Assembly: GCA_017134395.1 (NCBI GenBank)
Contig: CP070993.1
Location: forward strand, 189,656 to 253,655
Source: Candidatus Kaiserbacteria bacterium
GTDB lineage: Bacteria; Patescibacteriota; Minisyncoccia; Phycocordibacterales; UBA2100
Direction: 5' to 3'
Length of the DNA: 64,000 nt
In this document: positions 38,312-41,029 of the stretch, piece by piece
How the letters are laid out: each line of letters begins with the position of its first letter
Numbering within the stretch: position 1 is the stretch's first letter
The notes under the pieces: model-generated
Seen by the model: only the letters and a program-made list of their open reading frames with translations
Databases searched by the model: none
What the model was told of the DNA's origin: nothing
Translations under genes and position numbers: made by a program

Positions 38312-38330
38312 CTCCCCCCACCCCGCCGCA
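38312..38330 (+). repeat. copy 1 of a perfect 19-bp direct repeat, CTCCCCCCACCCCGCCGCA
   Basis: Identical to 41011-41029. The two copies bracket the DUF3800 and TM-protein genes. Confidence 0.8.
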
Positions 38331-38795
38331 TCCATTGAACACCACGGAACAATCTGATACATTTCTTGTACTGGTTGATGTGTACTGGCCACCACATCAC
38401 TTCCCGCAAGGGCGACACAGTCGGCTAACGCACAAGGTTTAGAGTGTGGGGATGCGCAACAATGATAGCGCTTGTAAAAACCGATCCCCACTATACTCTA
38501 CTCCTTGTGCGTTTTTTGATATCCATATAAAAACCCCCAGGAGGAATCATACGCGTCATCGAAACACACTAGATTCAACTCCCAGGGGTCAGTCCCTGCA
38601 CCTGGTCGCTATTATGCAAGAACTACGAGGGAGGTCCTACCAAAACCTATATCCCTCGCAGGTACATTTATACTTGAATGGTTAATGGTTTGCAATGTGT
38701 TTCCCTACCCTGTTGTGGTGTTTGGGTGAAGCTATCCCCATTCGCACATCCACCCTATTGCATTCCACCTACATCGAGGCGTAGTATGCGAGGAT

Positions 38796-39638
38796 ATGTT
38801 AAAAGAACGACAGGCAGCAATTCCTATTACGGATGAGAACACTTACTATCTATATATTGATGATTCAGGAGAGCGTCTCTCCCATGTACCACAAAATCCA
38901 AAACGAGATGATGGATTGGACTATTTTGCTCTAGGAGGAATTCTGATCAAGAAAACTGACCGTGATTTCGCAATCACTAAGTATAAAGAGCTCAGAAAAA
39001 AATGGAGGCTTACGTACCCTCTTCATTCAACAGAAATTCGTCGTTTTCGCAAAAACTTTATTTGGCTTATTGACACTAAAACCAGGGAAGAATTTATGGT
39101 TGATCTTGAAAAGTTTTTGTATGAAATACCTGTCATTGGTTTCGCAGCAGTGATTGATAAAGTTGGATACAACAAACGATATGAGGAACCGTATGGGGAA
39201 AAACGTTGGTGGTTATGTAGAACTGCCTACTCTATATTAATTGAACGAGTAGCTAAATATGTTCATTCCAAAGATGGGTATCTTAGAGTCGTTTTTGAAA
39301 ACGCTGGTACGAATGAAAACAAAGCAATATTACAATACGCTAAAGACCTTAAAGATACTGGGATGCCATTTAATAATGACAATTCTTCTAAATATGGGGC
39401 TTTTAGTCCTGATGATTTCAAAAAAGTTGTGCTCGGAGAACCTAAACGTCACGAGAAAAAATCTCCTCTAGTTCAAGTTGCGGATATATATTTATACCCA
39501 ATGGTTCGAGGTGGCTATTATAAGGATTATCCACCCTATCAAAGCTTATTAAAAAGAAAAAAACTAATAGACGCACTCCTGCCTGGTGCTGATTTAGATA
39601 GTATGGGGATCAAATACAGCTGTTTTGATTCTCGGTAG
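38796..39638 (+). CDS. DUF3800 family protein
   Basis: N-terminal YYLYIDDSGE (DxSG-type motif) and C-terminal VQVADIYLYP, as in DUF3800 as I recall it. Confidence 0.55.
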   Translation: MLKERQAAIPITDENTYYLYIDDSGERLSHVPQNPKRDDGLDYFALGGILIKKTDRDFAITKYKELRKKWRLTYPLHSTEIRRFRKNFIWLIDTKTREEFMVDLEKFLYEIPVIGFAAVIDKVGYNKRYEEPYGEKRWWLCRTAYSILIERVAKYVHSKDGYLRVVFENAGTNENKAILQYAKDLKDTGMPFNNDNSSKYGAFSPDDFKKVVLGEPKRHEKKSPLVQVADIYLYPMVRGGYYKDYPPYQSLLKRKKLIDALLPGADLDSMGIKYSCFDSR

Positions 39639-39858
39639 ATGGCAAAATTTAGATAACAAAATCCCCAGTCGAAACTGGGGATTTTGCCAGCCCGCAACGC
39701 GGACTCGGGGGCGTGGTGCCCATACCTAGAATATATCATGTAATATGTCTTATTACAAGAATTTGGGGATAGTTCCGACCGCTTAACAGAGCCATATTTT
39801 GGCCATTCTGTGTACAATTCGTTCTTTTTTTATTAACATTCGTAATTTGACAGACCTC

Positions 39859-39915
39859 CCTCAAAAAAATAAAATTAAAAATATTCAAAAGATTTTTAAT
39901 TTTATTTTTTTGAGG
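39859..39915 (+). repeat. perfect 23-bp AT-rich inverted repeat (CCTCAAAAAAATAAAATTAAAAA / TTTTTAATTTTATTTTTTTGAGG) with an 11-nt loop
   Basis: Arms are exact reverse complements. Lies between the DUF3800 terminator hairpin (about 39660-39690) and the promoter region of the 40013 gene. Confidence 0.8.
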
Positions 39916-40012
39916 TTACTTTATTGTATAATCCAAAAATAATTTAAACATTCTCTGTTTATTACAGATTGTGTTTAACTGGCTCGTTTAATTCTTATGG
40001 TAAGATTCATCT

Positions 40013-40867
40013 GTGAAATTTGATTTAGCAGATTTATTTTCATTCCTAGCAGGATTAATTTTGGGAATACTTCTAGGAATTGAACTCGTAGTAGATTTTC
40101 TAAATAAATGGCAAACAATTGTAGGTGCACTTATTGGAGCCGCTGCCCCACTCATAGTTTATTTTATAGGAAAACGACAGGACGAATATTATGCATATCT
40201 CGTACGGCTTGATAAGAGCCTCTCGCTAGCTGTTGTGAACTTAAGTGAAATTGATAATACTCTACATACATTTGTACGCGGAAGCTTGCAGAAACTAATA
40301 GATTCTGTCACGCAGACAGCAAAGCAAGATGAATTTGTTGCAAGAGCTTTTGTTCCTCTTCTATTTACTTACGAACTTCCTGAGGAGATTATTAAATTGA
40401 GCACCAAAACTGCATACATAGATAATAACTTACTACTCGTATATTCACGTTCTAAGGAGCTAGATCCTATGGTCGCAGACATAGGAAGACAATATGATAA
40501 AACGTACGAACTGCAGCTAACTTTGGTGGGCTCGAAAATGACTCCTGGTTCACAAATTACGACGGACTTGAATTCCATGTACGCTCAGAACCTTGAATCA
40601 TTCAAAGCGTATATCGAAGAATATTGGGCTAAAAACAATATGCCGATTTACCTTAAAGAACTTGTTCAGTTGCAAGTTGCTGTCAGAGAATTGCGAGAAA
40701 TGCGACGTCTTGGTTGGATAGTATGGCGCTGGAAATATGAAAAGGGAGCAGCTGATGATTTTGCTGTCATGCAGGAGTCTATCGACAAATCTTTGGAAAA
40801 GAAAGTTGGAGAAAGATTAGACCTAATCAAAAGAACAGCCTTTAATCGCTACAAGAAGAACGATTAA
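40013..40867 (+). CDS. hypothetical membrane protein (two N-terminal TM helices plus a cytoplasmic domain)
   Basis: FSFLAGLILGILLGIELVV and IVGALIGAAAPLIVYFIG helices. No motif. Accessory-region context. Confidence 0.5.
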   Translation: MKFDLADLFSFLAGLILGILLGIELVVDFLNKWQTIVGALIGAAAPLIVYFIGKRQDEYYAYLVRLDKSLSLAVVNLSEIDNTLHTFVRGSLQKLIDSVTQTAKQDEFVARAFVPLLFTYELPEEIIKLSTKTAYIDNNLLLVYSRSKELDPMVADIGRQYDKTYELQLTLVGSKMTPGSQITTDLNSMYAQNLESFKAYIEEYWAKNNMPIYLKELVQLQVAVRELREMRRLGWIVWRWKYEKGAADDFAVMQESIDKSLEKKVGERLDLIKRTAFNRYKKND

Positions 40868-41010
40868 AGGATTTTCTGTGCCAATTCGGATCCATAAATG
40901 GAGGAAAATATATATTTCCAATGATTTCGATTTCTTTTGAATCACCCCCCCTTTTTTCTTTATTTCATCATTCATATAAAAGGTGTCGCAAAACAACGCT
41001 AGTGCGTCAC

Positions 41011-41029
41011 CTCCCCCCACCCCGCCGCA
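41011..41029 (+). repeat. copy 2 of the perfect 19-bp direct repeat, CTCCCCCCACCCCGCCGCA
   Basis: Identical to 38312-38330. Lies 17 bp upstream of the -35 hexamer of the small-peptide promoter. Confidence 0.8.

Follow-up and report, generated by a model that had tools for sequence, protein, structure and literature searches.

In a 64-kb stretch of DNA from a Candidatus Kaiserbacteria bacterium (contig CP070993.1; this whole stretch of 64,000 nucleotides is called the window below), the gene for an M23 peptidase is followed by a variable island in which one 19-nt word, CTCCCCCCACCCCGCCGCA, occurs twice. The two copies of this 19-mer (copy 1, 38312..38330; copy 2, 41011..41029; both on the plus strand) are exact matches in the same orientation, as the initial annotation had reported, and their starts lie 2699 bp apart. 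Between them (38312-41029) are a DUF3800 gene at 38796-39638 and an open reading frame (ORF) at 40013-40867, a content on which our ORF calls and Pfam agree with that annotation. Copy 1 is situated between a divergent two-gene module and a structured non-coding stretch, and copy 2 directly abuts the right arm of the second of two dif-like sites. The repeat is real and non-random. It probably marks the junction of inserted DNA, and the account we place first, while giving it somewhat less than an even chance, is that the pair is a recombination junction left by an integrase-less circle that crossed over within the 19-mer at a dif-adjacent hotspot. By itself the 19-mer pair is a modest finding; the chief gain lies in its context, which comprises a putative dif hotspot at the replication terminus, a second dif-like site fused to one copy, a sequence polarity like that of FtsK-orienting polar sequences (KOPS) and a candidate, probably undescribed small RNA that accompanies DUF3800.

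The exact proteins of the island are on record only from one metagenome-assembled genome of Candidatus Kaiserbacteria (687,746 bp; JXR01_01170 to JXR01_01185). To the left of the island, on the plus strand, lie a cell-wall and division cluster (17.8-33.7 kb), gltX (33679-35013) and the M23 peptidase gene (35020-36297); to its right, PNPOx-like, SPFH, RNase T and Ada-like genes on the minus strand are followed by the L27 gene. For comparison, 80 related loci were fetched with the M23 protein as query. The closest of these (L041; 88% protein and ~83% DNA identity) is collinear with the window outside the island, and in a blastn comparison it has ~250 bp in place of 36712..41477; the entire block is missing from it, and it has no 19-mer. 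The gene order gltX-M23-SPFH-RNase T-L27 is kept in more than 20 relatives, with a variable gap of 0.7-9.9 kb between M23 and the next conserved gene. In the 617-kb relative L121 this gap holds a DUF3800 gene 63% identical to the one in the window, and in L132 it holds homologues of the two minus-strand genes beside copy 1 (7457-8759), in each case in the opposite orientation relative to M23. Because the gap varies in this way and the cargo of L121 and L132 is different and inverted, we regard the region as a hypervariable hotspot with independently moving modules.

Within the window there is no third copy of the 19-mer on either strand at up to three or up to five mismatches, and at six mismatches the matches are unrelated or self-overlapping. 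Its edges are sharp, since ungapped and local alignment of the 150 nt on either side of both copies recovered just the 19-mer and nothing beyond it. When the window was simulated 100 times with a second-order Markov model, the longest exact direct repeat had a mean length of 15.7 nt, and two of the simulated windows contained one of at least 19 nt; the chance of about 0.01 that had been estimated earlier is thus of the right order for any 19-mer. This particular word should be far rarer than that, because 14 of its 19 positions are C (with 2 G, 2 A and 1 T) in a sequence of ~41% guanine plus cytosine (GC). It is non-palindromic, has neither a dyad nor a helically phased internal repeat, and has no inverted-repeat partner in the window. 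No start-codon ORF spans both copies in one frame, which disposes of a coding explanation. Isolated repeats of this kind are rare: 1.08 Mb of related loci yielded a single isolated 19-mer, nearly all exact repeats of at least 16 nt there falling within longer repeat families of the hairpin type. Families of palindromic or terminator-like intergenic repeats, 30-130 nt long, occur in the related genomes L120 (3260-3383, 12769-12898 and 18753-18878), L087 (11400-14600) and L108 (1774-3785) and are reminiscent of miniature inverted-repeat elements.

Beyond the window, the 19-mer has 40 matches among species-representative genomes, which we attribute to chance because every one is a single copy in an unrelated GC-rich bacterium. 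Viral contigs contain none, 91 related loci contain none even at up to five mismatches at comparable places, and blastn of 38200-41300 against phage and plasmid records returned no match. The initial annotation had proposed a search of other genomes for the word and for empty sites; it has thus yielded chance single copies, with no spread across promoters in the window, while neither an empty-site allele nor a conspecific genome was present in any collection searched.

These properties bear directly on the view that the pair has no function and no link to mobility, being instead the leftover of an old duplication, a product of short-patch gene conversion, a chance match or an assembly artefact. 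The last variant would have a separate small molecule that shares the 19-mer threaded into the chromosome, 19 being k-1 where assembly begins with k = 20, and the sequence is indeed a single record of a metagenome-assembled genome. Some exact repeat of at least 19 nt is present in ~2% of simulated windows, but the C-richness of the word in this background puts its own chance far below that figure. A decayed duplication is disfavoured because it would be expected to leave similarity in the flanks, where there is none, and final assemblies normally require reads across both junctions. The contact between copy 2 and a significant dif-like site would, moreover, be an additional coincidence. We consider a functionless pair rather unlikely.

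The left edge of the island coincides with a 28-bp quasi-palindrome on the plus strand (dif-like site 1, 36684..36711; ATGTCGCAAAA-GATATA-TTGTAGGGCGT) with the architecture 11-6-11. Its consensus in relatives is ATGTCGCAAAA-GATATA-TTGTGCGACAT, and 23 nt of it and its edge (36682-36704) are identical in L045, whose M23 protein is just 54% identical; at up to four mismatches this 23-nt core is present in 26 related loci. The centre and right arm are nearly invariant and the left arm is more variable, a pattern that we take to reflect the XerC and XerD arms of dif. With a position weight matrix (PWM) built from 23 sites, on which site 1 scores 35.9 bits, exactly one site was found per locus in ~40 related loci, always on the strand of M23 and usually 0.3-0.5 kb, sometimes up to 3.5 kb, past it (for example at 11699 in L041, 9062 in L045 and 7511 in L121). 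Cumulative GC skew across the window has a coarse peak at ~32-36 kb and a fine-scale turn at ~36.6-36.9 kb, that is, at site 1, on which the genes also converge. A replication origin at this locus was considered and rejected, DnaA boxes being at chance level and the polarity of the skew being that of a terminus. Given this architecture, position and conservation, together with the polar motifs that converge on it, we infer from sequence that site 1 is the dif of this chromosome and that the polar G-rich words around it are KOPS-like. If so, an entire clade of Kaiserbacteria-like genomes gains a candidate dif site and a candidate KOPS-like motif. Some 290 nt to the left of site 1 there is also an isolated dif half-site (ATGTCGCACAA, 36392-36402), which is conserved in L041 and has exactly the sequence of the consensus right arm in reverse complement.

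KOPS and the SpoIIIE recognition sequences (SRS) are polar sequences that orient FtsK and SpoIIIE, with GGGNAGGG as the word in E. coli and GAGAAGGG in B. subtilis. The genomes studied here likewise have G-rich words that read towards dif, are strongly polar and become denser close to it. Counted over the window and ~0.5 Mb of related loci, AGGGAAG reads towards the dif-like site 126 times and away from it 7 times and AGGGGAG 124 and 10 times, and in the relatives 72 occurrences of GGGNAGGG read towards it and 3 away from it. These ratios far exceed those of permutations with equal base composition, which are mostly just 2- to 4-fold. Within 1 kb of the site GGGNAGGG has a density of 0.34 per kb, about five times the 0.066 per kb at distances above 6 kb. 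In the window the polar words lie mainly within genes and not at ribosome-binding sites.

The 19-mer might itself be a KOPS-like polar element: its G-rich bottom strand (TGCGGCGGGGTGGGGGGAG), with such words as GGGGTGGG, GGGGGGAG and their relatives, would steer an FtsK-type translocase to dif. The copies would then be kept since newly arrived dif-adjacent DNA needs oriented guides, a role that is compatible with a recombinational origin. The bottom strand does hold related words in the permissive orientation, namely GGGGGAG (64 towards, 7 away), GGGGAG (229 towards, 33 away) and GGGGTGGG, which agrees with GGGNAGGG at 7 of 8 positions; both copies point to site 1, and copy 2 points also into the right arm of site 2. 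Boxes like CTCTTCCC occur within 80 nt to the right of dif in many relatives, and L121 has, at ~7467-7476 on the reverse strand, the word CTCCCCCCAC, which equals the first 10 nt of the 19-mer and lies on the right-hand side of this relative's dif-like site, at a distance of 33 nt. Yet the most polar words (AGGGAAG, AGGGGAG and GGGNAGGG) are not found exactly in the 19-mer, part of the polarity of G-rich words is due to GC skew and to genes co-oriented with replication, and the recognition motif of FtsK in this lineage is itself a candidate read from sequence. KOPS are, furthermore, 8-mers scattered genome-wide, whereas here there is an exact pair of 19 bp, in two copies only, and a function residing in 8 nt leaves 19 of 19 identical positions unexplained. 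A guiding role as the explanation of the repeat is thus, in our estimation, unlikely.

The second dif-like site, found by half-site and weight-matrix scans, lies at 40983..41010 on the plus strand (GTGTCGCAAAA-CAACGC-TAGTGCGTCAC), in the same orientation as site 1. Its last base, 41010, is followed without a gap by the first base of copy 2, 41011. The arms match at 10 of 11 and 8 of 11 positions, and the central 6 bp are unrelated to the GATATA or GGTATA of the family. On the arms alone it attains a PWM score of 25.3 bits, against 25.8 for site 1 and a maximum of 21.9 in 40 simulated windows. None of the ~40 relatives scanned has a second dif-like site; the window alone has one. Together the two sites bracket 36712-40982, which is most of the island. 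No dif-like arm was detected by the same scans in the 28 nt before copy 1 (38284-38311), and a Xer crossover at the left 19-mer is thereby ruled out, so that the crossover of any 2.7-kb circle must have been within the 19-mer and not at a Xer-type site.

What the copies enclose looks foreign and is heterogeneous. Directly after copy 1 comes a structured non-coding stretch on the plus strand (38331..38530) in which a long hairpin (38427-38513) is followed by a U-run in the manner of a terminator (fold z-score -4.5); it matches nothing in Rfam and is not conserved in any relative. The plus-strand DUF3800 gene (38796..39638; PF12686, E 3.9e-12) has 283 homologues, many of them in candidate-phyla genomes, and in the six other contexts examined it sits by itself amid unrelated genes, in one case within a type I restriction-modification operon. 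Its recurrent unit covers only ~38.8-39.73 kb and is elsewhere never accompanied by the 19-mer or by the second gene. A spacer of 27% GC with a near-perfect AT-rich palindrome of 27 nt (39859..39915), which overlaps a promoter-like site at 39847-39875, separates this unit from the plus-strand ORFan gene at 40013..40867, whose 284-aa product has a hydrophobic N-terminus and an otherwise predicted soluble sequence. Searched against 5.8 billion proteins, this product matched only itself, and it has no family or PDB hits. As the DUF3800 unit recurs alone and the other parts are unconserved or ORFan, the bracketed DNA is a mosaic and not a recurrent cassette, nor is it the coherent unit that the earlier suggestion of an inserted cassette implies. 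Searches of the island proteins with PADLOC, NCBIfam, PHROGs and PDB sequences were uninformative, and on the non-coding parts of the island no known RNA family came near any threshold.

We rank a recombination junction first because the repeat is exact, sharp and rare, because it lies in a hotspot and in a dif setting, and because copy 2 is fused to a pseudo-dif that is unique to this locus. In this scenario a circular, integrase-less segment of 2699 bp, carrying in order the 19-mer, the structured RNA, the DUF3800 gene with its small RNA, the ORFan gene and dif-like site 2, would have met a chromosomal copy of the same 19-mer in an already variable island directly to the right of the chromosomal dif at the terminus. 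After a single crossover inside the 19 bp of identity the insert would be flanked by a 19-mer on either side. A host tyrosine recombinase, of the Xer type or another, may have catalysed this crossover in trans, or it may have come about by short-homology recombination. Domain scans of the four island proteins and 25 further ORFs of the window, from which the cell-wall and division cluster at 17.8-33.7 kb was left out, detected neither a recombinase nor a transposase; the missing recombinase is as expected for an element mobilised in trans.

Several observations weigh against this history. The data searched contain no empty-site allele, excised circle or second strain, and the count of 19-mer copies covers the 64-kb window of a 687-kb genome, in the rest of which there may be more. 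Neither the block missing from L041 (36712-41477) nor the DUF3800 unit has the 19-mers as its boundaries, the enclosed DNA is mosaic in both composition and phyletic spread, and no other DUF3800 locus examined has flanking direct repeats. The 19-mer also has no inverted-repeat core of the type bound by tyrosine recombinases, and 19 bp is short for RecA-type recombination.

Measured against known classes of element, the pair has the identical core in direct repeat that attL and attR would have (19 of 19 positions, same strand, 2699 bp). The scanned ORFs contain no recombinase gene inside or beside the unit, and the insert does not recur elsewhere as one piece; an att-type interpretation of the 19-mers is nevertheless plausible from the sequence. 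The earlier alternative of a target-site duplication is not borne out: such duplications usually measure 2-14 bp and this one would measure 19, terminal inverted repeats are lacking immediately inside the copies, and the scanned ORFs yielded no transposase. Integron cassettes are comparable as small, promoter-poor cargo units at a recombination hotspot; they differ in that the 19-mer has no imperfect inverted-repeat attC structure and no inverted-repeat partner, occurs in two copies only and is accompanied by no IntI gene in the scanned ORFs. The 2.7-kb unit thus qualifies neither as a transposon target duplication nor as an integron cassette nor as a classical integrase-bearing element.

Two classes without an integrase of their own come closer. 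Cis-mobilisable elements (CIMEs) are att-flanked remnants without recombination genes, which depend for their movement on the integrase of a related element. By analogy, the 2.7-kb unit resembles such a remnant: short exact direct repeats enclose a cargo of a few kb, and we could find no recombinase of its own; unlike a CIME, the unit comes with no detected integrase-bearing relative, no tRNA or other typical target gene and no core-type inverted repeats. Integrative mobile elements exploiting Xer recombination (IMEX) include the gonococcal genetic island of Neisseria, which lies between difA and difB, and the CTX/TLC arrays of Vibrio with their short 'end repeats'. The arrangement at our locus appears, on present comparison, to work most like an IMEX or a dif-adjacent island. 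The island lies directly beside the chromosomal dif-like site at the terminus (its identity as dif being our reading), two dif-like sites (36684 and 40983) bracket it in direct orientation, the second of them is imperfect with a different centre, which would hinder excision, and no integrase gene was found within. It is unlike an IMEX in that the exact repeat is the C-rich 19-mer beside the dif-like sequence and not that sequence itself, that the left 19-mer has no dif-like arm, so that entry of the 2.7-kb unit there would not be by Xer crossover, and that the block missing from L041 runs to 41477, ~470 bp past site 2. Judged from the sequence, three of the four defining features of IMEX seem to be present, the remaining one being catalysis by host Xer; the scanned window ORFs include no Xer gene. 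If the junction is what we propose, it would represent dif-adjacent, IMEX-like gene acquisition in a bacterium of the candidate phyla radiation with a genome below 0.7 Mb, and would mean that reduced genomes gain defence-type cargo without integrases of their own.

A regulatory explanation has to be weighed against the units on the outer sides of the two copies. To the left of copy 1 lies the two-gene module on the minus strand (36897..38214), in which a 189-aa gene (37645-38214) precedes a 255-aa gene (36897-37664); both products belong to broad families of uncharacterised homologues, and the pair is widespread in a form of ~185 aa plus ~250 aa. Neither Pfam nor PADLOC returned a hit for the module. 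Our alignment of the 255-aa protein shows an invariant RNKRGVGH motif, which we would, as a guess, compare with the HEPN-like Rx4-6H motif. The confident AlphaFold2 model of this protein (predicted local distance difference test, pLDDT, 89.8) has a helical N-terminal domain and a C-terminal part that weakly resembles winged-helix DNA-binding domains (Foldseek E at least 0.26). The module may be an unclassified defence or toxin-antitoxin pair. An apparent remnant of the 255-aa gene in L041 was discarded, as its alignment score of 46 is no better than that of shuffled controls (37 +/- 7). To the right of copy 2 lies a short plus-strand transcription unit (41047..41264) composed of a promoter-like site (TTGACA-16-TATAGT, 41047-41074, 11 of 12 matches, with TG), a hydrophobic ORF of 27 aa (41103-41186; MNLADFLIALVILAVIGDIIVMIIQAV) and a terminator hairpin of 12 bp (41220-41264). 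The relatives hold no convincing homologue of this ORF; a peptide in L080 was rejected as its frame carries stop codons. A type I toxin-antitoxin arrangement between the RNA that follows copy 1 and the small-ORF messenger that follows copy 2 was likewise rejected, complementarity not exceeding that of shuffled controls, and the DUF3800 small RNA described below has no complementarity to the 19-mer contexts beyond such controls.

The initial annotation had noted correctly that copy 2 ends 17 nt before a strong promoter and had raised a shared regulatory box as its alternative. In a fuller form, the 19-mer would be a cis-regulatory element, either an operator or activator site for a protein or a C-rich motif acting at the RNA level, that controls the two short rightward units downstream, possibly along with the divergent two-gene operon. 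Each copy is intergenic and upstream of a rightward unit with a strong terminal hairpin, the two predicted RNA folds leave the C-rich core unpaired, and a candidate DNA-binding protein is encoded beside copy 1, given the predicted winged-helix-like domain of the 255-aa protein, though that structural match is weak. The spacing to the -35-like hexamer is, however, 4 nt at copy 1 and 17 nt at copy 2, the copy 1 site, which the promoter scan did not call, matches at only 8 of 12 positions, and no further copy stands at any promoter in the 64 kb. The absence of a dyad and of phased internal repeats also speaks against an operator, the homologous gene pair of L132 lacks an upstream box of this kind, and the downstream transcripts have no complementarity to each other or to ribosome-binding sites beyond shuffled controls. 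An origin as a binding site is disfavoured because independent evolution would not give 19 of 19 identity without a conserved promoter spacing. This explanation consequently strikes us as improbable, and the recombination junction retains our preference.

A more far-reaching possibility takes the terminus hotspot as a dif-centred exchange site for cassettes, at which integrase-less modules are swapped by host Xer-type recombination. Examples at this locus would be the DUF3800 nuclease together with its small RNA, and the minus-strand gene pair, whose larger protein is part helical and part winged-helix-like; the combination of dif-like site and 19-mer would be a new attachment and guide unit, a KOPS-like element fused to a pseudo-dif. 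We hold this to be very improbable, and more remote still is a variant in which the DUF3800 protein, with its RNase H fold, and its RNA mobilise the unit themselves.

The small RNA, which is not linked to the 19-mer, is an observation in its own right. It is predicted on the minus strand at 39652..39723 (~72 nt), convergent with the DUF3800 gene and preceded by a promoter-like site at 39758-39730. It comprises a 5' hairpin (GGGC/GCCC), a 7-bp hairpin (GGUCCGC/GCGGGCC), in which a U-G pair is valid only on the minus strand, and a bidirectional terminator common to it and the DUF3800 gene. The element directly follows every DUF3800 homologue examined, from candidate-phyla bacteria to Rhizobium (L121 8827-8897, L122 5806-5877, L125 5803-5874, L127 980-1050, L130 5802-5872, L175 3817-3887 and L178 913-985), and in all eight distinct sequences a -10-like hexamer stands 5-6 nt before AUGGGC. 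In the alignment 94.5% of the cells are paired and six pairs have compensatory changes, values that none of 500 shuffles reached. A covariance model (R1) gives 82.8 bits in the window and 42.9 bits in the Rhizobium locus L178, the matches adjoining DUF3800 genes; it finds nothing in the rest of the window and one weak match of 20.7 bits (L072) in the other related loci searched. The RNA core has 42 matches in viral contigs, all in GC-rich phages without DUF3800, which were set aside as chance.

The DUF3800 protein has an RNase H-like fold (PMC7736814, PMC10910872), and eleven unrelated DUF3800-associated RNAs of unknown function, motifs I-XI, have been described (Weinberg et al. 2017, PMC5737381). 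Like those motifs, the ~72-nt element is a structured, conserved RNA beside DUF3800 genes that ends in an intrinsic terminator and is spread across phyla; it differs in being convergent, in having its terminator in common with the gene and in matching no Rfam family, the DUF3800 families of the library searched included, at E up to 10. Since no family matches, it is probably a further, undescribed DUF3800-associated motif; such a candidate twelfth RNA bears on what DUF3800 proteins do with their RNAs. In L175, where the DUF3800 gene is embedded in the type I restriction-modification operon, a sub-threshold match to DUF3800-IX (3961-4020, minus strand; 28.8 bits against a threshold of 36.8) adjoins that gene and lies 74 nt from the ~72-nt element. 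The same locus has an insertion at 4064-5092 with HTH_38 and weak rve (integrase-core) hits, present also in L177 and not in L176, which we read as a probable insertion sequence.

At its right edge the island is bordered by a conserved non-coding block (41477-41889; L041 11978-12397) that contains a minus-strand terminator hairpin (41482-41505), back-to-back promoter-like sites (41551-41615), a conserved small membrane ORF of ~38-41 aa (~41641-41767; MSNHGFHLIPHAGMSLLEKAAWVFILLLIGAGLDFFLV) and possibly a C-rich, divergent small RNA of ~60 nt. Partly overlapping it is one of two copies of an intergenic repeat of ~95 nt (6478-6572 and 41880-41975), ~82-85% identical, with an exact 30-nt core (6506-6535 and 41909-41938) and a terminator-like hairpin end. 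Both copies lie just 3' of minus-strand genes, and at the position of the second L041 holds a different insert of 468 bp with a 126-aa ORF.

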